Assembly (NCBI GenBank): GCA_016839945.1
Contig: JAEOTE010000090.1
Location: forward strand, 44,399-108,398
Length of the DNA: 64,000 bases
Direction of reading: 5' to 3'
Source of the DNA: Candidatus Heimdallarchaeota archaeon
Lineage (GTDB): Archaea; Asgardarchaeota; Heimdallarchaeia; Heimdallarchaeales; Heimdallarchaeaceae
Shown here: piece after piece, positions 45,967-57,915 of the stretch
How positions within the stretch are numbered: position 1 is the stretch's first letter
Layout of the letters: each line of letters starts with the position of its first letter
Made by a program: the position numbers and the translations under genes
Notes under the pieces: model-generated
Database searches by the model: none
What the model was told of the DNA's origin: nothing
The model's input: only the letters and a program-made list of their open reading frames with translations

Positions 45967-47760
45967 TTATTTGCTACTTCTCTTTGCGGTTTCAATAACT
46001 TCTTTTGCAATTTTTTCATTAACCGAAATAAGTTTCATTATTTCTTCTATATTTGCAGAAGCAATGTTTTTTATGTGTTGATACTCTTGGAAAAGGAGAA
46101 AAACCTTTGCTTTTCCTATTCCTTTAATTCTTTCAAAGTTAGAACTTTTGACTGTTCTTGCTCTTAGAGTTTTATGATAACTAATTGCAAATCTATGTGC
46201 TTCATCTCTTACATTCTGAACCAATTTTAGTACAAAAGAATCTTGATCGAGGGTTATTGGTAAATCTAACCATTCTACATATATTTCTTCATTTTTCTTA
46301 GCAATGCTTATTGCAGGAATACTAAGGTTCAGCTTTTTCAAAACTTCTAAAGCAATATTCAATTGCCCCTTACCACCATCAATTATTAGGAGATTAGGCA
46401 ATGGATCAGACTTCAGAATATCAGAACTGTATTTTCTTTTTATTACTTCTTCCATCATAGCATAATCATCAGGATCCGTATAAGAACCTCTAATACGAAA
46501 TCGTCTGTACAGATCCTTCTTAGGTTGTCCATCAACAAAAGCAACGCAAGAGCCAACTGAAAGTTGACCTTTCAAGGTTGATATATCAAAACCGTGAATT
46601 ATTGTAGGTTCTTCAGATAATTGAAAAAGCTCTTGCATTTCTTTGAGAACTAATTTTGAATCCTTTTCATATTTAATATCTCTTAAAAATTTGAAGAGCT
46701 CTGCCCTTGCATTTTTCTTAGCAATGTCAACTAATTGGTTACTTGTATTATCTTTAGGGAAGACTATTTTTAGATTAATATTAGGATTGAAGCGCTTTGT
46801 AAAATCATCACTAGTTAAAATGCTTTTAATAGATTCAGTTGTCCCATATATGAATACTAGAATCTCACTTAATGTCTTAAAAAGGATTTTTTCACTTTTT
46901 GATGTTATATAATTCTTAATGTTTTGGACTCTATGATTACGTACTTCCAGCTTGCAAAATGCTAGATTTGGTTCTTCTTCTACAAATGCTAGAACATCAA
47001 TATTCTTTATTTTAGAATGTAAATCCTCTTGCAGATTAAGTATTGTTCTTACAGATTGAGTAAGATCTCTAATAATTGTAGCTCTTTCGAAATCAGCTTC
47101 TTCAGATGCAGACCACATTTCTTTTTCAAGATTATCTAAAAGATCAGCTACATCTCCATTTAAGAACGAGATGACATTTTTCACAGTTTTTGTGTATTCT
47201 TCAGTGGAAATATCGTTTTTACAGGGAGCTAAACACCTATCTAATCTTTCTCTCATGCATCTGATTGAAGATTTCTTTATTCTTAAATTCTCTACGTTTT
47301 TTCCACAATTACAAATTGGAAATAGTCTTAAAACTAATTTGACTGTTTGCCTAAGCATTATGTTACTTGGAAAGGGACCGAAATAGATGTTTTTCTTATT
47401 TCTTGGATCTGTTTCTCTAACAATTAAAAGCTGAGGATATTTTTCTATCAAAGTTATACAAATTAGAAGATTCGATTTATCATCTTTTAGCATGCTATTA
47501 AATTTTGGTGATAATTGTTTCACAAGTTTTTCTTCTAGAATAATAGCTTCTGATTCGTTTCTTGTTAAAATCCAATCTACCCTAGTAGCTAATTCTTGAA
47601 GCTTTTCTTCTCTTGGTAGTGACACAGCTTGAAAATGTTGTTTTACTCTTTTTTTCAGACTCTTTGCTTTTCCAACGTATATTACAATATCTTCTATGTC
47701 TTTGATTAAATAAACACCAGGATCGTTAGGTAATTCTTCTAAGTCTGAAAAAAGACTCAT
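45967..47760 (-). CDS. uvrC: Excinuclease ABC subunit C
   Basis: PGVY, YVGKAKSL, GFDIS, DDYAMM, IDGGKGQL, RDEAHRFAI, HhH. Confidence 0.96.
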   Translation of the reverse strand: MSLFSDLEELPNDPGVYLIKDIEDIVIYVGKAKSLKKRVKQHFQAVSLPREEKLQELATRVDWILTRNESEAIILEEKLVKQLSPKFNSMLKDDKSNLLICITLIEKYPQLLIVRETDPRNKKNIYFGPFPSNIMLRQTVKLVLRLFPICNCGKNVENLRIKKSSIRCMRERLDRCLAPCKNDISTEEYTKTVKNVISFLNGDVADLLDNLEKEMWSASEEADFERATIIRDLTQSVRTILNLQEDLHSKIKNIDVLAFVEEEPNLAFCKLEVRNHRVQNIKNYITSKSEKILFKTLSEILVFIYGTTESIKSILTSDDFTKRFNPNINLKIVFPKDNTSNQLVDIAKKNARAELFKFLRDIKYEKDSKLVLKEMQELFQLSEEPTIIHGFDISTLKGQLSVGSCVAFVDGQPKKDLYRRFRIRGSYTDPDDYAMMEEVIKRKYSSDILKSDPLPNLLIIDGGKGQLNIALEVLKKLNLSIPAISIAKKNEEIYVEWLDLPITLDQDSFVLKLVQNVRDEAHRFAISYHKTLRARTVKSSNFERIKGIGKAKVFLLFQEYQHIKNIASANIEEIMKLISVNEKIAKEVIETAKRSSK

Positions 47761-49733
47761 TAATTCGACACCATTCTTTCAAGTTCTTTTATTTTATCTC
47801 TATATATAGCTGCTTTTTCGAAATCAAGTTTTCCAGCAGCTTCAGCCATTTTTGTTTTGAGATCTTCAATTACATATAGAATGTCATCACTTGTTAAATC
47901 CTCTGGGATCTCTATTTTTTCCTCCTCTTTTGGTGTTACTTGCATTAATGTTTCAACAATCGATTTAACTTCTTTACTAATCGTTTTGGGTGTAATTCCA
48001 TGTTTTTCATTATGTTCTTTTTGAATTTGTCTTCTTCTATTGTTCTCACTAATTGCTTGCATCATTGAATTAGTTAGATTATCAGCAAATAGAATAACAC
48101 TTCCATGAACATTTCTGCTTGCTCTTCCCATTAATTGGATAAGTGAAGTTTTAGATCGTAAAAAGCCTTCTTTGTCTGCATCCAGAACTGCTACAAGTGC
48201 TACTTCAGGTAAATCCAAACCTTCTCGAAGAAGATTAATTCCAACTACTACATCATACTTACCCAACCTAAGATCTCTCAAAATATCAATTCTTTCTAAA
48301 GTATCCACTTCATGGTGTAAATACACAGATTTAACTTTCATATCAAGAAGATAATCAGATAACATCTCTGCACTTTGTTTAGTTAGAGTTGTTACCAAAA
48401 CTCTTTCTCCTTTACTTGTCCTTTGATTTATCTCACTCAGGAGATCCGTGATTTGGTCATCAGTACCTCTTACTTCAATCTTAGGGTCCACTAATCCAGT
48501 AGGTCTAATTATTTGTTCAACAATCTGATTAGAAACATTATACTCATACGGACCAGGAGTTGCGCTTGTGAACATTGTGTTCCTCATATATTTCTCAGTT
48601 TCTTCAAATTTGAATGGACGATTATCAAAAGCGGAAGGAAGTCTAAATCCATAAGTAATCAAATTGTTTTTTCGAGAATAATCTCCTGCATACATTCCTC
48701 TTAACTGAGGTATTGTTAGATGAGATTCATCGATAAACAATAGAAAATCTTCTGGGAAGTGGTCAAGTAAAGAATAAGGTTTCTCTCCCGGCTTTCTTCT
48801 ATCAAAATGACGTGAATAGTTCTCGATTCCAGGACATCCTCCAGTTTCTCGTAGAAGCTCTAAATCGTAGAGCGTTCTTTGTCTTAGCCTATGTTTCTCA
48901 ATTATTTTTTCTTCTTTTTCTAGTTCTGCTAAACGCATATCTAATTCTAATTTTATATCTTCCAAAGCTGTTTCGAAGAATGCATCGTTTGCAAGATATT
49001 GAGTCCCTGGAAAGATTGAAAGGTAATCGTAATCTTTTATTTTCTCCCCAGTTACAGGATGACGAGCTGTTAAACGTTCAATTTCATCCCCAAAGAATTC
49101 AATACGATAAATATAATCTCCGTACAAAGGAAAGATATCTATTGAATCACCTCTAACTCTGAAGCATTTACGCTCAAGATTAACATCATTTCTTTCGTAT
49201 TGGTTTTTTACTAGCTCCATCATTAAATCTTGTCTGTCAAGTGTATCTCCAAGCGCCAATGAAATTCTTCTAGAACGATATATTTCAGGAGGACCAGTAC
49301 CATAAATGCAGGAGACAGTAGCGCAGACAATTACATCATCTCTAGTAGCTAGTGCTTCAAGCGAAGTATGACGTAATCTCTCGATTTCTTCATTAATATC
49401 TACATCCTTCTCAATATACAAATCTTTGGAAGGCAAATATGCTTCTGGTTGATAGTAATCATAAAAACTAACATAATAATTTACGCTGGCTGAAGGAAAC
49501 AGAGTCTTAAATTCACCAAATAGCTGAGCTACAAGAGTTTTATTTGGACCAATTATTAATGTAGGTTTCTTGATAGTATCAATAACTTTAGCCATAGTGT
49601 AAGTTTTTCCACTACCTGTTACACCTAACAATGTTTGAAATTTATTGTTATTCTTCATTCCATCTACTAGCTTTTTTATAGCTTTAGGCTGATCCCCTCT
49701 TGGTTTTAGTGGAGTCTCAATATCTAATGGCAT
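47760..49733 (-). CDS. uvrB: Excinuclease ABC subunit B
   Basis: GDQP.AI, GVTGSGKT, YDYYQPEAY, DESH, GINLLREGLD, UVR domain. Confidence 0.97.
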   Translation of the reverse strand: MPLDIETPLKPRGDQPKAIKKLVDGMKNNNKFQTLLGVTGSGKTYTMAKVIDTIKKPTLIIGPNKTLVAQLFGEFKTLFPSASVNYYVSFYDYYQPEAYLPSKDLYIEKDVDINEEIERLRHTSLEALATRDDVIVCATVSCIYGTGPPEIYRSRRISLALGDTLDRQDLMMELVKNQYERNDVNLERKCFRVRGDSIDIFPLYGDYIYRIEFFGDEIERLTARHPVTGEKIKDYDYLSIFPGTQYLANDAFFETALEDIKLELDMRLAELEKEEKIIEKHRLRQRTLYDLELLRETGGCPGIENYSRHFDRRKPGEKPYSLLDHFPEDFLLFIDESHLTIPQLRGMYAGDYSRKNNLITYGFRLPSAFDNRPFKFEETEKYMRNTMFTSATPGPYEYNVSNQIVEQIIRPTGLVDPKIEVRGTDDQITDLLSEINQRTSKGERVLVTTLTKQSAEMLSDYLLDMKVKSVYLHHEVDTLERIDILRDLRLGKYDVVVGINLLREGLDLPEVALVAVLDADKEGFLRSKTSLIQLMGRASRNVHGSVILFADNLTNSMMQAISENNRRRQIQKEHNEKHGITPKTISKEVKSIVETLMQVTPKEEEKIEIPEDLTSDDILYVIEDLKTKMAEAAGKLDFEKAAIYRDKIKELERMVSN

Positions 49734-50440: not shown

Positions 50441-51211
50441 TTACAAATTCATATTCTCAGCAATGGGGAAGTATTTTGGGAAAATCAATTTTGCGAAGTT
50501 TTGATACATTTCCACACTATAATCTTTTTGTTCAATTAAATCCTCTAGTTTAACTATTTCAGATTCATTGTATCCTTTCATATTGGGGAATTGGTTAAAA
50601 TCACCATAATCAAGAATCTTGCAGAAGATTTCACCTAATTGATCTAACTCAAGATAAGATTCTATAATTATGTGGATATGGTGAGTAAGTTTTTCTATTT
50701 GTTCTTCAGCTTTTACTGAATTAGAAATTCTAATCACTGACAAAATAGCTGCTCGCCTTGTTATGTAATCTTCTGCATAAACTACGTTTGTGAGAGGGTA
50801 CAATACATCAGCATCATCCAGATATCCTATAGCTCTTATTGCAGCATATTGTAGATCATAACCGCTTTCTTCTAGTACCTTAACAAGATAAGGCTTAGAC
50901 GAATAATCCTTCAATTTTCCTAGAACTTCTAAAGAGGATAATTTGATTGCTAAAGAACTCCTTTCAATTAAATCGTGCAGGTATTCTAACACTTTCTCCT
51001 TTGTTTCAGGAAAATGCTCTATAAGATAAATCAATGTCAAAGATGCTGCATTTCTAACATTCCAATCCGCATCTTCTATTAGAGGAAGAATTTTCTTAAC
51101 ATTCCTTGTTTTAGGTTTTTTCTGTAGAAAAAGCGCAAAGTGTGCTCTATCTAATGGTTCATCACTTTTCAGTTTTTTTCCAATAAGCATCCCTTTAAAG
51201 AAATCCATCAT
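50441..51211 (-). CDS. HEAT-repeat (PBS-lyase-like) protein
   Basis: DADWNVRNAA, IKLSSLEVLG, LQYAAIRAIG.L.D, TRRAAI repeats. Confidence 0.85.
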   Translation of the reverse strand: MMDFFKGMLIGKKLKSDEPLDRAHFALFLQKKPKTRNVKKILPLIEDADWNVRNAASLTLIYLIEHFPETKEKVLEYLHDLIERSSLAIKLSSLEVLGKLKDYSSKPYLVKVLEESGYDLQYAAIRAIGYLDDADVLYPLTNVVYAEDYITRRAAILSVIRISNSVKAEEQIEKLTHHIHIIIESYLELDQLGEIFCKILDYGDFNQFPNMKGYNESEIVKLEDLIEQKDYSVEMYQNFAKLIFPKYFPIAENMNL

Positions 51212-52782
51212 AGCTCATATACCCCCTCTTTAATTAGATATGCTAAAGCTCCCCTCTGGGGTTGTGTAACTTTACGTAAGTATGTGTAATCAATCTTACT
51301 TACATCGATTTTTTCATCCTTCTCATCGTCTAAATCAAATTTGTATGCGTCCTTCTTCTTTGTAACTTGTACAGCTCTTGTTGCGATTGGTAAATTATAA
51401 GGAGATAAAGGTTGATACTTTGTTTTATGAACTGCAAAGAGTGTTGCTACATGTATGCCACCAAGTTTCTTGAATATCACAACATCAGCAAAAGCAGGCA
51501 GAATTGTTCGAAAATCATCTCTATAAAGAGACATGTGATTGTGGAGGATAACTAGTTGATCAATCCCAATTCCATAATCATTAACTTCAAAGACATATAC
51601 TTTCTTTTCTCCCACCTTAACATAACCTTTTGAGTTTATCCTTGGTTTATCATCAAGGAGTTGTCCGAAAGTTGAGTATTTTTTCCTATATACTTTTCGT
51701 GTATATTCTTCTATTTGTCTCCAGCCATAGGCATAAACAGACCAAATATCTGTCCATCTACTTTTTGAAGAATGCCAGGTTTCAACAACACTTTCAGAAT
51801 GTACATTCTTATTCACTGCTAGTAAATCTTTAACTTCATCCCATGAGAATTCTTCTAACAGTTCATAATCCGACTTGTAGCTAAAAAGTTTATTAAACAA
51901 TTCCTCCTCATTTTCTAGTTTGCTTAGGAGTCGTTCTATTATAGCAATAGTAAATTCACCAATTGGTGGTGCTAAAAAGGCTTTCAAATCGTTTGGATAT
52001 TGTATTCTTTTATCTTCATCTCTCTTAGGTAGTTTATATTCATCTTTCTCAAGTAAATAATCTAAGGCTTTCATTTGTATATAGTGTGCAAAACCTTCAT
52101 CGATTATTTCATGAAGGTGCTTTTTTCTTGCAAGTTTAGCCCTTTCCCCTATCAGATTTATGGCCTCTATTGAGAAATTATTGAACAAAGTATATTTTCT
52201 TGCATCTTCAGGAGGAGTGTAAAAATCTTCTACGTTTGCTTCAGTAAATAAACGTATCACACCGATTAGATCTTGGAAGTATTGCCAAGCCCAGGCATGT
52301 TTGTTGTCAGATGTTTGATTTAATTTGAAGACATTATTTACCATCAACTCCTTTAAAATCACATCAATTTGATATAGTTTTGAAAGAGTTCTTGCAGAGT
52401 TTGATTCAGTCTTTTCATTCATGTAAGCATGAGCAAAAGCATGAATTAGCATAATTCTTAGTGTAAGTTCTTGTTCTTTTGTCAATTCATAAGATGGTAC
52501 TGAGAGATAAATCAATGTAGGTAATGAATTATATACGGTTTCTTTTCCTGTTGGAAGAAAATCATTTATTCTAGCTGATCTTAGGTTTGTAATTTGTTCA
52601 GCTGTCAGTATTGCCTGAGGGGTTCCAGTTATTTCAACTACACGGTTAACTGAAACATGGAGTTCAGGATTTATAAAGATTAGAACACGATAATTTTCTG
52701 GATTAGAACCCACTAAAACTCTAAAATCTGCCTTAGCTTTTTGGTAGACTTCAACAATTTCTTCTAGTTCAGCTTTAAGCAT
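51208..52782 (-). CDS. Zincin-fold/SpoVR-like protein with degenerate HExxH
   Basis: IHAFAHAY plus downstream IIDEGFAHY; overlaps both neighbours. Confidence 0.6.
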   Translation of the reverse strand: MLKAELEEIVEVYQKAKADFRVLVGSNPENYRVLIFINPELHVSVNRVVEITGTPQAILTAEQITNLRSARINDFLPTGKETVYNSLPTLIYLSVPSYELTKEQELTLRIMLIHAFAHAYMNEKTESNSARTLSKLYQIDVILKELMVNNVFKLNQTSDNKHAWAWQYFQDLIGVIRLFTEANVEDFYTPPEDARKYTLFNNFSIEAINLIGERAKLARKKHLHEIIDEGFAHYIQMKALDYLLEKDEYKLPKRDEDKRIQYPNDLKAFLAPPIGEFTIAIIERLLSKLENEEELFNKLFSYKSDYELLEEFSWDEVKDLLAVNKNVHSESVVETWHSSKSRWTDIWSVYAYGWRQIEEYTRKVYRKKYSTFGQLLDDKPRINSKGYVKVGEKKVYVFEVNDYGIGIDQLVILHNHMSLYRDDFRTILPAFADVVIFKKLGGIHVATLFAVHKTKYQPLSPYNLPIATRAVQVTKKKDAYKFDLDDEKDEKIDVSKIDYTYLRKVTQPQRGALAYLIKEGVYEL

Positions 52783-54160
52783 AAAGTATACTCTCCTTTA
52801 GAATTTGTTCACCTAATTTCTTGATTTGAGCTGGATCAATTAAAATTGGTCTAGTAATACCTTTCAGCATTTGTTTTGTATGAATGTATAACTCTTTGTT
52901 GCGGAGTGACTCAGTTCCCATCAAGAAGTAAGATACGTTCCATTTCCTTGAGCGATCTTTTTTCAAGCTTGTAAAAATAGCGTTGAGTTGAACTAAACAC
53001 TCTATTGTTTCTGGTTTTGTTTTGGTTTGTATTTCAGAGAAATATCTTGTTAATGCATCACTTTTTCGATAATTAAATGGAAGAGTTGGAACATTAGGCA
53101 TACCATCTGTTACTATGGTGAATTGAACATCTATGTCTTTGTCTGTATGTTGTTTTTTTGCATGTTCAATTGCAGCTTGAACGGCTTGAACCATGTATGT
53201 CTTTCCTTTAGCTTCTGCAGATAACAGGAGATGTTCCATTTTTTTATCATCATCTACAACTGTTGTATTTTTTCTGATAGGTACAACTGCAAGTTTGAAC
53301 ATATCATGACGCTTTCTTTTTCTTCTGTTTATCAGTTTAAAATAGTAATAAAGACTTAAACTTGTTAATAGAGCTCCATCTAATCTAGACATTTTGCCCT
53401 CAAAAACAGTTTTTCTCATTGATTGACTCATATCGACAATGAGATAGACTAAAGATCGTCTGTCTTTCTTTACTCTTACTATATCTTCTTGCTTAACTGA
53501 GGATGGAGGTATGGTTTGAGAGCCAAGAATTGCGCTTTTGTAGGTTTCTTTTAAACGGATAGTTCCACTTGGACGTTTTTGGACTTCATCAATGGGTGCA
53601 ACAGAAATTTGTTTCAATAGATATCGACCTAATATTTTCCCAAGTAAATCCATGACACTTTCTCGTGAAATCCTCTTTTTTCTTCCAAATGCATCAGTAA
53701 TTTCTATATCTACTATGTCTTTTAGTTGATTTAATTTATCTGCTAGTTGCTGCAAATCGACAGTGCCTTCGTGTTTTAATTCACGTAATAAATCTTGTAT
53801 ATACTTTAGAATGTCCTCGAGTGTTTGTAGCTCATTACGATTAACTCGTTCTAAAACATCAGGAAGAACATGATCTCCCATAAATCTTAGAAGTTTCAGT
53901 TCATTTACTAAACGTTCTTCTTCTTCAGGAGTAAGATATGTATTCATGATTTTCTGAAGTATATTTTCGATAGCAACAGAGTGTTTTGCTGCAATTGATA
54001 GAACTGCCCCTTCTCGAGAACTTCTACCTAAATGCGGATTTCTCCATAACCGTAAGACTTGAGCAGCATCCTCAAAATCCAATACAAACTCTACATCACC
54101 ATAGTGTTGTAATGGATCAGTGAATTCAGTTTCTGTAATGAAATATATTCTATGAGGCAA
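52775..54160 (-). CDS. vWA-domain protein (Rv0959-like)
   Basis: VYLIVDMSQSM MIDAS, G.T...A, IVTDGMPN; TTG start with GGAGATG RBS. Confidence 0.85.
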   Translation of the reverse strand: MPHRIYFITETEFTDPLQHYGDVEFVLDFEDAAQVLRLWRNPHLGRSSREGAVLSIAAKHSVAIENILQKIMNTYLTPEEEERLVNELKLLRFMGDHVLPDVLERVNRNELQTLEDILKYIQDLLRELKHEGTVDLQQLADKLNQLKDIVDIEITDAFGRKKRISRESVMDLLGKILGRYLLKQISVAPIDEVQKRPSGTIRLKETYKSAILGSQTIPPSSVKQEDIVRVKKDRRSLVYLIVDMSQSMRKTVFEGKMSRLDGALLTSLSLYYYFKLINRRKRKRHDMFKLAVVPIRKNTTVVDDDKKMEHLLLSAEAKGKTYMVQAVQAAIEHAKKQHTDKDIDVQFTIVTDGMPNVPTLPFNYRKSDALTRYFSEIQTKTKPETIECLVQLNAIFTSLKKDRSRKWNVSYFLMGTESLRNKELYIHTKQMLKGITRPILIDPAQIKKLGEQILKESILYA

Positions 54161-54195: not shown

Positions 54196-55743
54196 TTAGA
54201 TATAGTCAACTTTCAGTAGCTGTTCATAAGATGGTTTAAGTTTTTCAGTTATTAATTCTCTAATATTTTCTTTGAATTTGTCTAATCCTTCAAACTTAAC
54301 AATCAATTGAGCTAATTCTTCATCACTTAGAGCTTTCATTTTTGAGATATCTTCGGAGATATCTTGAACGCTTATTGAAACCTCAGATTCTTTTATTGCG
54401 GTTCTTAGAACAATTTTCATTTGTTGTAAAGCATCGTTTATCATTGAAACGGGTATATCATATGCACCCATTATGTTCCTAATTCTTTCTAGTGTAATAA
54501 CGTTAACATCTTCTTCTATTTCTCTTGCTTGTAAGAGAACTGTCTCACCAATAATATTGTTCATGGTTCGAAGATCGATATGAGGATTTCTTTGAGGATC
54601 ATGAATTTCATCTAAACCCGAATAAAAATCGTTTCTAGCAACACGGCTTTCTGAGCGTAATCCTTTTGTTTTTAATGTTCCAGGTAAGGAATTGTTTCCA
54701 AGAAATGCTAGAAAAGCAACTGCTAAACGACTAACGAAATCTGTTGTTTCTTTTTCTAGTTCATGAAGCTGTATAAGTGAGGGATTAGCTGTAATCTTCT
54801 TCCTTGAAAGGATGATTTGTTCTTCAAACATATCCTTAATAATTTGTTCTCTACTCTCAACTGAACGAGCTGGCCAGAGTACTTCTGGAATACGATTAAT
54901 AATAGGTTGGCTTTCTTCTCCAAAAACAGTGAGTGGTGCATTAGATGTGAAAAGAACTGCTCCATCAATATAAACGGGTTCTCCTTGTATATTATACTTG
55001 ATACCCATTGGTTCTTCTAGAAAGCCCATAAGTGATTCTAGCAAGGTTAATGGAAGTCTTTGAATTTCATTAACAACCAAAAAACCATGTGATAGAACTC
55101 CAACTTTATGTGATGTTGCAGCATAAGTTGTTGAAGTATCTTTACCAAATAGTTCTTCAAGATTTTCAACGCCTGCTAGGAGCATGTATAAGCTTTCTGG
55201 ATCAGTTCTTGGATCAAGTTGAGATCTTCTAACTAGTGTTTTTTGAGCTTTAAGCTTTCCTAGTTTACTAACTACATCTTTTGGTGTTATTTGTAAAACA
55301 CTATTTGTATTATCTAGTTCCACAGGATTATTTTCGCCTGAGAGAGTTTTTTCGATACTTTGTCTACAATATGGACATAAAGATTGTAGAACGCGAATAC
55401 CAGCAAAAGGATTGGATTGAAAGTTGTTTATAATGTCTACAATATATCCCGCATCTTCTAAGAAAGGACATCCTTCTATGTGATATTTATAATTGTTAAT
55501 TTCTCTAACAACATGATCGAGTAATACTCTAGCGAAAAGTGTTTTTGCTTCCCCTGTAGGTCCTGTAAGTAGTACTTTACCACCAACTGCTAATTTATCC
55601 ATTACTAGATTCTTACCTACTTCATTACCTCGTACACTAACGTCTTTTAACACTCTATCTCTAAATTCTGGATTCATTAAGATTGATCTAATTGAGTATC
55701 CAGAATATCCATCTTTCATTAATTTCTCTATAGTTTGAGTCAT
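54196..55743 (-). CDS. AAA+ ATPase, chelatase/PrkA-related (Rv0958-like)
   Basis: TIEKL...GY...SIR N-terminus, LLTGPTGEAKT Walker A, GCPFLED..CPYC, FLVVNE Walker B, FTSN, IINRI. ATG 55743 has a GAGGT RBS (alternative start 55770). Confidence 0.85.
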   Translation of the reverse strand: MTQTIEKLMKDGYSGYSIRSILMNPEFRDRVLKDVSVRGNEVGKNLVMDKLAVGGKVLLTGPTGEAKTLFARVLLDHVVREINNYKYHIEGCPFLEDAGYIVDIINNFQSNPFAGIRVLQSLCPYCRQSIEKTLSGENNPVELDNTNSVLQITPKDVVSKLGKLKAQKTLVRRSQLDPRTDPESLYMLLAGVENLEELFGKDTSTTYAATSHKVGVLSHGFLVVNEIQRLPLTLLESLMGFLEEPMGIKYNIQGEPVYIDGAVLFTSNAPLTVFGEESQPIINRIPEVLWPARSVESREQIIKDMFEEQIILSRKKITANPSLIQLHELEKETTDFVSRLAVAFLAFLGNNSLPGTLKTKGLRSESRVARNDFYSGLDEIHDPQRNPHIDLRTMNNIIGETVLLQAREIEEDVNVITLERIRNIMGAYDIPVSMINDALQQMKIVLRTAIKESEVSISVQDISEDISKMKALSDEELAQLIVKFEGLDKFKENIRELITEKLKPSYEQLLKVDYI

Positions 55744-55759
55744 GGGAGGTACCTCTTTT

Positions 55760-56356
55760 TTATTTATCATTCTCTTCTTCTGAAGGAATTTGAATCTTAA
55801 TTGGTTTTATTTTTTCTAATAATTTTTCTTTTTCCGACCAAGGTTTAACATAACCCATATGAATTATCTGTTTCAACCACTTTAATACATCATGCATTGA
55901 TTCTTCGTTGGATATTTCAAAAAGATTCCAAAGACGATCTGTGAGTCTTATCAGAGATAAGTTCTCGATTAGTTCTCCTCTAGATAATGCTCCTTGAAGC
56001 TCGGAGTTATAAGCACATACAGCTATTGGTAAGTTCTTGGTCTCTTCTGCCCAGACAACCTTTTCCCAAAAATAATTTCTTTCATGTTTAATCATTTCTT
56101 CTTTTGTAGCATCTATCAGATAAAGAAGTGCTTCAAAAGGTAGGAATTGTTTAGGTTTAAATTTAAATTTCTCTGTGTATGGTAATTCTGTTAAGCAACT
56201 ATCTATTATGTATTCTCTTAGAGAAGTATAGGATCGTAACAATAAAACTCGGTTTCTGGTTGTGGGTATATCATTTCCCATAACCAGTATTGTTACTTCC
56301 GGGTAACCTAGCTTTCTTCGAATAGATTGTGAAATATTTTGGATGAAGTTAGTCAT
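55760..56356 (-). CDS. Arf/Arl-like pseudo-GTPase (G motifs degenerate)
   Basis: Amphipathic N-helix plus [43 protein letters not shown]. Confidence 0.7.
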   Translation of the reverse strand: [198 protein letters not shown]

Positions 56357-56448
56357 TAGGCTTCGTCAAATTGTTTCAATAATAAATGTTTAAATGTTTT
56401 ATGAATCTGAAGGAAAATTTTTTGAGGTGGTAGAAAATTCAAAAATAT

Positions 56449-56943
56449 ATGACTAACAGCATTCTTAACATTGTGGTAGCAGGAATAAATTATGAATCAA
56501 AATGGCTTTTGATAAAGCGAAAAAGAGGGGACTATATAACCAAATGGGCTTTAGTTGGAGGAAAAATAGAGCATAATGAGGAAATTAAGGAATCTATACT
56601 TAGAGAGATAAAGGAAGAAACCAGTCTAAATGTAAGATGGGAAGGAGTAAAAGGTGTCATTAATGAGAGATTAGTTGAAAAAGAAAAGAAAAGTAAAATT
56701 AGACACTTCATAATCGTCTTGTGCCAAGTTAGTGTAGAAAATGATAAAGTTTTATCAACAGAGGAAGGAGAACTACAATGGTTTTCAGAACAAGAAATTA
56801 TCAATAAGAAAGACGAAATCATTCCTTCAGATTATTATATGTTAACGGAAATTCTTCAAAAACAAGAAACAAAGCAACTAGTTGAAGTTGAAATGATTCA
56901 AGAAAAAGAAAAGCTAATGTTATCAAAACTCCTAGAATATTGA
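56449..56943 (+). CDS. NUDIX hydrolase
   Basis: GGKIEHNE......LREIKEETSL Nudix box; EEG.L.W. Confidence 0.9.
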   Translation: MTNSILNIVVAGINYESKWLLIKRKRGDYITKWALVGGKIEHNEEIKESILREIKEETSLNVRWEGVKGVINERLVEKEKKSKIRHFIIVLCQVSVENDKVLSTEEGELQWFSEQEIINKKDEIIPSDYYMLTEILQKQETKQLVEVEMIQEKEKLMLSKLLEY

Positions 56944-56961
56944 TACAATTATAGCACAATT

Positions 56962-57915
56962 TCAACTTATGATGTTCTTAAATTTTTCAATATCAATCTT
57001 AGAACCACTCAGAATTAGAACTATATTTTTACCTTCAAATTTTTCACAATTCTTGATAAAGGATGCTACTGATAAAGCAGCAGCGCCTTCAATTTGCATG
57101 TAGTGTTTCTCTGAAACTAACTTGATTGCTTCTTTTATTTCATCTTCTGTTAAAAGAACATAATCATCTACGTATTGCTTACATAAATCAAAAGTTATAG
57201 AATTCTCTTCAATTCCACCAGCTGTTCCATCAGATAGTGTTGGTTTAGAAGGTAAATCTAAAATTTTCCCTGCTTTTACTGATTCATACATAACAGCTGA
57301 ATTGAAAGGTTGGCAACCAATAATTGTTACTGGTGTTACTTTTTCTTTTAGATATCCAGCAATGCCTGATATCAGTCCTCCCCCACCAACAGGTACAAAT
57401 ATGTAATCTATCGATTTCAATTGCTTTTCAAGTTCAATAGCTATTGTCGATTGTCCTGCAATAATTTTAGGATCATTATAAGGCGAAACAAAAACCAAAC
57501 TATTTCTTTTAGCAATTTCTCTTGCGTATATTTCTGTTTTCACACAGTCATCCCCGTAGAAGCTTACTTTAACATCATATTGCTTTATGGGTTTTCTTTT
57601 TGAGTTAGGAGTGGTTGTAGGCAAGAATATTGTTCCTTTTATCCCAAACTTATTAGTAATATATGCGAATGCCAAACCATGATTGCCAGAAGAAGCAGTA
57701 ACGAACTCAGCATCTCTTTTATTTTCTAAGGTTGATAGGATTTTATTGGCTGATCCCCTCAATTTGAAGGAGCCAGTAATCTGCATGTTTTCCAATTTTA
57801 GGTAAACATTGCAATTACCTAGTTCACTAAGGAATTTAGAATGTTCGAGTTGAGTTTCAATAACATGATCCTTTATTCTTTTTTCTGCATCTAAAGCTTC
57901 TTGAAGAATGTCCAT
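56962..57915 (-). CDS. PLP-dependent threonine/serine dehydratase family
   Basis: KLEN.Q.TGSFKLRG, ASSGNHG, PVGGGGLISG, DGTAGG, EGAAA. Confidence 0.9.
   Translation of the reverse strand: MDILQEALDAEKRIKDHVIETQLEHSKFLSELGNCNVYLKLENMQITGSFKLRGSANKILSTLENKRDAEFVTASSGNHGLAFAYITNKFGIKGTIFLPTTTPNSKRKPIKQYDVKVSFYGDDCVKTEIYAREIAKRNSLVFVSPYNDPKIIAGQSTIAIELEKQLKSIDYIFVPVGGGGLISGIAGYLKEKVTPVTIIGCQPFNSAVMYESVKAGKILDLPSKPTLSDGTAGGIEENSITFDLCKQYVDDYVLLTEDEIKEAIKLVSEKHYMQIEGAAALSVASFIKNCEKFEGKNIVLILSGSKIDIEKFKNIIS

Follow-up and report, generated by a model that had tools for sequence, protein, structure and literature searches.

The window analysed here is a 64,000-nucleotide stretch of contig JAEOTE010000090.1 from a Candidatus Heimdallarchaeota archaeon, and its gene at 55,760–56,356 on the reverse strand, named pArf hereafter, encodes a 198-residue protein that sequence comparison identifies as a real homologue of the Arf-family small GTPases. 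The protein has a predicted Arf-type small G-domain fold and, like its relatives, has lost the canonical nucleotide-binding motifs; the gene is under strong purifying selection, occurs once per genome, has passed by vertical descent through four archaeal families, and belongs to a conserved gene cluster that encodes an AAA+ ATPase and a VWA protein. We regard it as probable, with some reserve, that pArf is a nucleotide-free class-i pseudoGTPase that serves as an adaptor or subunit of an AAA+/VWA machine. The assignment covers the whole open reading frame (ORF) and draws on the Pfam Arf profile, hhalign, AlphaFold2 (AF2) modelling, VIA structural alignment, and the ratio of nonsynonymous to synonymous substitution rates (dN/dS). 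Coordinates are those of the window, and the features of pArf and its cluster lie on the reverse strand.

Arf homology and predicted fold

The ORF of pArf runs uninterrupted from an ATG start to a TAA stop (198 codons, zero internal stops), in agreement with the intact frame described in the first-pass annotation. The Pfam Arf profile (PF00025) matched the protein with an E value of 1.8e-6 and a score of 28 bits (cut-off 22.3), with the match spanning residues 74–163 and profile positions 82–172, that is, the C-terminal half only. Among the 55 aligned relatives, 31 matched Pfam Arf, and other GTPase families were matched solely by the three canonical controls. A phmmer search against all sequences of the Protein Data Bank (PDB) returned Arf/Arl chains only, including Arl8A (7e-6), Arl3, and the Asgard protein HodArfR1 (8ouk/8oul, 6e-5). 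Through hhalign analysis in global mode, 25 family members aligned with canonical Arfs (four Arf-type proteins of the same genome and three canonical Arf/Arl) over 170 columns, with a probability of 99.1% and an E value of 3.7e-18. These profile methods reproduced each of the matches to Arf1 that had earlier been drawn by eye, an agreement well outside what chance would give.

We modelled pArf by AF2 with a 55-row alignment of the whole family, which gave a predicted local distance difference test score (pLDDT) of 87.3 and a predicted template modelling score (pTM) of 0.82. The first half of the model consists of an N-terminal helix (residues 2–15; 56,312–56,353, amphipathic and helical in both AF2 models), β1 (21–28), α1 (31–42), a strand (49–56), and an irregular segment (57–75); the second half consists of β4 (76–82), α3 (86–101), β5 (111–116), α4 (126–132), and β6 (143–148), followed by α5 (151–166) and an extra helix (173–183). 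Foldseek returned HodArfR1-GDP (8oul) as the best match (E 1.2e-9). VIA-align superposed the model on Arf6-GDP with Z = 19.2 and a root-mean-square deviation of 2.0 Å over 140 residues; the best 50 entries were all Arf or Arl, and Arf/Arl chains scored Z = 17.5–19.2. Fold prediction and both structural comparisons thus yield a small G domain of the Arf type, as had been proposed from the letters of the window.

Loss of the nucleotide-binding motifs

We inspected the positions of the G motifs in profile alignments column by column. At the G1 position, G27-N-D-I-P-T-T-R34 aligns with the canonical GLDAAGKT (hhalign and column inspection), and the P-loop Lys/Thr are lost; this degenerate site, extended through N35 and R36, occupies 56,249–56,278. 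The DxxG(Q) of G3 is absent, and the switch II helix α2 is absent from the model, in which the shortened switch/interswitch (residues 57–75; 56,132–56,188) has no regular secondary structure. The distance from the first P-loop Gly to the β4 motif is 51 residues in pArf versus 65–66 in the canonical Arfs of the same genome, so that the DxxG/switch II region carries a deletion of 14–15 residues. At G4, Y116-N-S-E119 (56,000–56,011) aligns with NKQD in hhalign and MAFFT columns, and the G5 position reads F-E-I-S, the canonical motif being lost. The first-pass annotation had listed the replacement of the P-loop by NDIPTTR, the missing DxxG, the YNSE in place of NKxD, and a switch region about 14 residues shorter, and each of these was recovered. 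It had also listed Thr in place of Gly2; the substitution is present, but it is uninformative as a loss, since the myristoylation signal is missing from the characterised Asgard ArfRs as well (10.1101/2024.02.28.582541).

None of the 52 family members carried canonical G1, G3, G4, or G5 at the homologous columns, whereas the three canonical controls have them, and retention of G1–G4 was found in no orthologue from 95% down to ~20% identity, a check that the first-pass annotation had set for its proposal of a repurposed scaffold. Because none of the 52 relatives keeps any motif, the motif loss is not local decay. Regular-expression hits to GxxxxGK[ST] in one relative (P0075), and to DxxG and [NT]KxD in several sequences, lay outside the homologous columns and were discounted once the alignment had been inspected column by column. 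With P-loop, DxxG, NKxD, and G5 all lost, pArf most likely cannot bind or hydrolyse GTP.

Conservation at the former G1 and G4 sites is uneven. Among the host families, labelled f1 to f7 here, R34, N35, and R36 (also T33) are invariant in f1 only, over 19 f1 sequences, and Y116 and N117 are likewise invariant within f1; G27 alone is near-invariant family-wide. At the G1 position, relatives from f3 (e.g. P0047, P0050, P0061; L028, L030, L033) carry R-[VI]-G-[KNQS]-[TA] in varying form, with K and T freely swapped among sister sequences, apparently the drifting remnant of an ancestral P-loop.

Conservation, selection, and descent

The median pairwise dN/dS was 0.12 (range 0.03–0.28, Nei-Gojobori) over 111 pairs restricted to 0.05 < dS < 1.5, drawn from related genomes, with a few of the loci being duplicates, so that the pairs are non-independent. 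This value indicates strong purifying selection on pArf. Public data hold 42 relatives of 55–95% identity, nearly all of 192–202 residues, with one 140-residue fragment, and the closest come from metagenome-assembled genomes (MAGs) of Heimdallarchaeaceae. Identity within the genus is 72–95%, and 48 positions are invariant among 19 public-data relatives.

Conservation is concentrated in the distal half: identity between the window protein and distant members is 33% over residues 74–166, versus 13% over residues 17–73. Family-wide conserved residues are R93, W97, and W102 in α3; G122 and L124; E131, L133, L135, R137, D140, and R141 from α4 to β6; and W160 in α5. Across 55 sequences, R93, W97, and W102, which form the α3 motif R93-x3-W97-E98-x3-W102 (56,051–56,080), are at least 90% conserved. 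W97 and W102 are specific to the family, and the remaining conserved residues are common to Arfs. The best conserved stretch over the same 55 sequences is the Arf-type α4–β6 motif S134-LIRLTDRL-W143 (55,928–55,957), corresponding to the Arf LxLxxxRxRxW stretch, with L135 invariant and R137, D140, and R141 at least 90% conserved.

HMMER, run exhaustively over 1.84 billion cluster representatives, produced 27 matches only: the family, relatives of 20–38% identity in which the motifs are likewise missing, and, at the border of E ~1e-3, a few canonical Arf/Arl. Searching 400 Asgard genomes with the family profile, we found one copy per genome in 54 of them, within four families of one class, that of the window (f1 29/30, f2 1/1, f3 12/12, and f7 11/12). 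No strong match (E ≤ 1e-15) occurred in the 22 f5 genomes, the 2 f6 genomes, or the 317 Asgard genomes of other classes, and the only weaker matches, at ~1e-9, appeared once each in f5 and f6. The open frames at the 54 genome matches measured 161–219 residues, with no fused forms. Family f4, which has no strong match to the profile, holds a still more divergent relative of 158 residues without a P-loop (L043:16262–16738, minus strand, genome G029), which sits 9 kb from the AAA+/VWA cluster of that family.

A quick maximum-likelihood tree, unrooted and with long branches, included all 30 other small-GTPase ORFs of the same genome and placed 26 family rows on one side of a branch with a Shimodaira–Hasegawa-like approximate likelihood ratio test (SH-aLRT) support of 92. 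The family thus forms a single clade, lies outside every canonical group, and nests in no single ArfR subclade, and its own subclades follow the host families, as expected under vertical descent.

Annotation pipelines label pArf an "ADP-ribosylation factor-like protein", a name that would distort tallies of functional Arf switches. One orthologue of 94% identity (P0003) bears the name "Candidatus Thorarchaeota archaeon" in its public record. Every other named relative belongs to the Heimdall group, and this record is probably a mislabelled MAG.

The AAA+/VWA gene cluster

We examined the genomic setting of pArf, which heads five co-oriented genes: pArf, an AAA+ ATPase (524 residues; 54,196–55,770), a VWA protein (461 residues; 52,775–54,160), an orphan protein (524 residues; 51,208–52,782), and a HEAT-repeat protein (256 residues; 50,441–51,211). 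The spacings, in order, are 16 nt (or an 11-nt overlap with the longer AAA+ start), 35 nt, an 8-nt overlap, and a 4-nt overlap. The probable start of the AAA+ gene is Met10 (55,743), where orthologues begin aligning and before which GAGGT stands at a distance of 7 nt. The five genes form a lineage-specific cluster, are expected to be co-transcribed, and are probably translationally coupled.

In 45 of the 54 genomes (29 of f1, 7 of f3, and 9 of f7), the next gene downstream of pArf is the AAA+ gene, and three more cases are cut by contig ends. The other four genes form a core that is syntenic in all five families carrying the cluster (f1, f2, f3, f4, and f7). A search for the AAA+ gene within the class of the window found it in f1 29/30, f2 1/1, f3 12/12, f4 3/3, f7 9/12, f5 0/22, and f6 0/2, a phyletic pattern nearly equal to that of pArf. 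This conserved AAA+/VWA operon is the strongest functional clue to pArf. In mirror-tree analyses controlling for the AAA+ gene, pArf distances correlated with those of the orphan (partial r 0.79), the HEAT-repeat protein (0.65), and the VWA protein (0.35); we treat this covariation as a weak lead, since shared fast rates and relatedness can yield it.

The AAA+ protein appears MoxR/ChlI-like and very divergent, judged from Pfam, language-model features, and motifs. The only Pfam profile to pass was Sigma54_activat (21.1 vs 20.2 bits); the MoxR-type models AAA_3 and AAA_5 stayed below their cut-offs (AAA_5 13.5 vs 22 bits), and the family profile matched no PDB chain. By language-model features the protein falls near the Mg_chelatase/AAA_5 clusters (0.98). 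Walker A (GPTGEAKT), Walker B (VVNE), a TSN motif, and R293 are kept in 25 orthologues. Between Walker A and Walker B lies an insert of ~160 residues with CP...CP..C.

The VWA protein (Pfam VWA_2, E 0.004) has a complete metal ion-dependent adhesion site (MIDAS) motif, DxSxS...T...D, that is invariant among orthologues, and its family profile weakly matched the VWA domain of TRAP (E 0.005). The AAA+ gene therefore stands immediately upstream of a MIDAS-VWA gene, the adjacency seen in MoxR-type pairs. In database searches the orphan protein was found in Heimdall-group records only; it had no Pfam, NCBIfam, or PDB relative, and its 26 homologues, whose named sources are all of the Heimdall group, carry no Pfam domain. 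The last gene of the cluster encodes a HEAT-repeat protein (Pfam HEAT_2, 2e-14).

We considered and set aside three other identities for the cluster or its members. A SpoVR-like pseudo-zincin reading of the orphan found no support at the sequence level, with its HAFAH not conserved in orthologues (QLLAMA, HAFAKV, YALAKA) and no match of SpoVR models to 11 orphan orthologues. The PrkA(YeaG)-YeaH-SpoVR(YcgB) module gave no match at the locus for PF08298, PF04285, or PF04293, the AAA_PrkA, DUF444, and SpoVR models, even at E ≤ 10, and when the family profiles of the three core proteins were aligned by hhalign with E. coli YeaG, YeaH, and YcgB, probabilities stayed below 3%; the sole aligned stretch between the orphan and YcgB was EGFA versus NEGWA (E 0.078), and kinship of the cluster core with this module is not supported by these sequence comparisons. 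A defence-system reading, for which PADLOC gave only weak TRIP13 N-terminal and weak HEAT matches, was rejected because the cluster is single-copy and syntenic.

Comparison with known systems

We compared pArf with the Asgard ArfR/AArf proteins (HodArfR1, 8OUK/8OUL; GerdArfR1, 8OUN) and with eukaryotic Arf1, Arf6, Arl3, and Arl8, whose fold it is predicted to share. The N-helix–β1 layout, the β4 hhhhD, the α4–β6 LxLxRLxDRxW, and the α5 Trp are common to both sides, whereas pArf lacks the P-loop Lys/Thr, DxxG, switch II, NKxD, and G5, has family-specific α3 Trp residues, forms a separate clade, and stands in an AAA+/VWA operon. We place pArf as a derived, non-switch offshoot of Asgard ArfR/AArf and Arf/Arl, with class-i pseudoGTPases as its closest functional kind.

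Three features would place pArf among the class-i pseudoGTPases in the sense of Stiegler & Boggon 2020, as cited in PMC13393502: a predicted G-domain fold, lost G motifs, and a gene kept under purifying selection in 54 genomes of four families. Described class-i pseudoGTPases (the AAGAB psGD, p190RhoGAP pG1/pG2, CENP-M, and fungal dynein light intermediate chain) are eukaryotic and mostly not Arf-derived, whereas pArf is archaeal, stand-alone, and operon-encoded, and its loss of nucleotide binding is proposed from sequence. The only similar Arf-family case that we found in the literature is ArlEM of the Eumicrosporea (Microsporidia), a putative Arf-family class-i pseudoGTPase (PMC13393502). 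By its description, ArlEM resembles pArf in having mutated G motifs, G-domain deletions, and conservation across its lineage, but differs in its independent origin in a eukaryotic parasite and its lack of operon context. Rup3, a set of Heimdallarchaeia-specific GTPases (Vargova et al.), is set apart, again by description, by insertions that expand the GTPase domain, in contrast to the deletion in pArf.

On the side of the cluster, the MoxR-type pairs NorQ-NorD, CbbQ-CbbO, RavA-ViaA, and CoxD-CoxE share the order of an AAA+ gene followed by a MIDAS-VWA gene. They are described without a subunit of small-GTPase fold, whereas the pArf cluster adds three dedicated genes, and its AAA+ protein differs from theirs in scoring below the AAA_5/AAA_3 cut-offs and in its GPTGEAKT and VVNE motifs.

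No published description of the pArf family was found in the literature, and within the library searched, pseudoGTPases and archaea came together in two papers only, each a general review of pseudoenzymes or pseudokinases. Two surveys of Asgard Arfs do not describe the family; in one, conserved G boxes were a condition for inclusion, and in the other, divergent sequences stayed without annotation as "yet to be investigated". Most pseudo-GTPases of this kind described to date are eukaryotic, and Asgard Arf-type GTPases have been studied as precursors of eukaryotic membrane traffic. The present family suggests that Heimdallarchaeia not only expanded their small GTPases but also turned one into a conserved pseudoenzyme tied to an AAA+/VWA machine, and it offers a small, tractable system for studying G-domain function without nucleotide and the role of an orphan five-gene machine.

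Proposed role of pArf and alternatives

In the explanation that we favour, pArf descends from an Asgard Arf-type small GTPase. The predicted G-domain fold and the distal half of the sequence (α3, β5, α4, β6, and α5) have been retained, and the P-loop Lys/Thr, DxxG with switch II, the guanine-specificity motif NKxD, and G5 are gone. The pArf product would act as a nucleotide-independent subunit or adaptor of an ATP-driven remodelling machine, and would bind its partner through the conserved α3/α4–β6 face, opposite the former nucleotide pocket. Two precedents bear on this proposal. One is that MoxR/VWA pairs remodel dedicated targets in a chaperone-like manner (PMC9976466, PMC13036017). The other is AAGAB, whose class-i pseudoGTPase domain holds its client by the face opposite the nucleotide pocket; this client face partly overlaps the α4–β6–α5 back side of Arf1, a site of secondary contacts in Arf1 (PMC12490416); the conserved residues of pArf lie on α3/α4–β6/α5.

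Several observations weigh against this explanation. An AF2 model built with the 19 close orthologues only was unusable (pLDDT 43), and the 55-row alignment behind the usable model included three canonical Arfs; the sequence-only evidence for Arf homology holds independently of the model. pArf is unlinked from the cluster in genus g3, in one g7 genome, in f2, and in f4, so that adjacency is not obligatory. The AAA+ protein, a putative ATPase, has atypical Walker motifs (Ala for the second Gly in Walker A, Asn for Asp in Walker B). The invariance of T33, R34, N35, and R36 in f1 leaves room for a lineage-specific ligand.

Two other roles share the next place, each appreciably less probable than an adaptor or subunit. 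One is a constitutive membrane anchor, in which an N-terminal amphipathic helix that is always available would tether pArf or the AAA+/VWA machine. The helix of residues 2–15 has a hydrophobic moment of 0.85, a value reached by 0 of 300 shuffles, and is followed by R13-R14-K15, and Asgard ArfRs use their N-terminal helix for membrane binding (10.1101/2024.02.28.582541, PMC11914678). The helix is present in f1 and shortened in f3, whereas the f2 and f7 relatives, as well as P0045, P0046, and P0048, lack it or have it in truncated form, although pArf of f7 still adjoins the AAA+ gene; the helix was also modelled with a pLDDT of only 62–73, and no cluster partner has predicted membrane features among the features examined. 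We therefore hold an anchoring role to be rather doubtful.

Equally doubtful is a role of pArf as a client remodelled by the AAA+/VWA pair, or as an inhibitor that gates the pair, one possible route being the presentation of an acidic residue, or of the acidic C-terminal tail, to the MIDAS site. The MIDAS sites of VWA proteins take acidic ligands, and each MoxR/VWA pair has dedicated targets (PMC9976466, PMC13036017); the MIDAS motif of the cluster protein is invariant, and the tail of pArf ends in SEEENDK in f1, with an acidic tail in many f3 members too. Against this, f7-type members such as P0045 have a basic tail, and the data do not separate a client from a subunit.

A more specific form of the subunit proposal, to which we give a slightly smaller chance still, is that pArf is a dedicated "light chain" of a MoxR/dynein-clade (AAA_5-like) AAA+ machine, linking the motor to the HEAT-repeat or orphan partner. 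In dynein, a Ras-like light intermediate chain bridges the AAA+ motor to cargo (PMC4359372). If true, pArf would be a prokaryotic parallel to that chain and to eukaryotic pairs of small G domains and HEAT solenoids, and the repurposing of small GTPases as pseudoenzymes within complexes would predate eukaryogenesis, the host class of pArf being the archaeal class closest to eukaryotes.

That pArf is a cryptic switch, which still toggles by binding a nucleotide or small ligand through T33, R34, N35, and R36, seems improbable. Some pseudoenzymes relocate catalytic residues (PMC10211241), and three of the four pArf residues (R34, N35, R36) are strictly kept across the f1 sequences; however, none of the four is conserved in f2, f3, f4, or f7, the switch II segment has been deleted, and no family member has the guanine-specificity Asp or G5. 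A decaying pseudogene or chance ORF, for which only the loss of all catalytic motifs would speak, is refuted by the intact frame in 54 genomes, the low dN/dS, the high within-genus identity, and the conserved synteny. These results, together with the predicted Arf fold and motif loss in 52 of 52 members, bear out the view of the first-pass annotation that pArf is a repurposed pseudo-GTPase scaffold rather than a decayed gene.

Source genome and neighbouring loci

The source genome measures 3.0 Mb and is 88% complete, and G+C is 31–38% across the whole window. In the same genome, 35 loci match the Arf hidden Markov model (HMM), ~8 of which score 95–149 bits as strong canonical Arf-type sequences; several of the 35 lie in open frames of 300–420 residues (fusions), and two stand in tandem on contig C71. 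Upstream of pArf, an A+T-rich 92-bp spacer (56,357–56,448, assigned to neither strand) is shared with a divergent NUDIX hydrolase gene and is, from its sequence, the presumed promoter region. This NUDIX gene and a gene for a pyridoxal phosphate-dependent (PALP) enzyme flank the head of the operon (56,449–57,915), and UvrB/UvrC lie downstream of its tail (45,967–49,733). Synteny of the NUDIX, PALP, and UvrB genes extends throughout f1, and f1 only.

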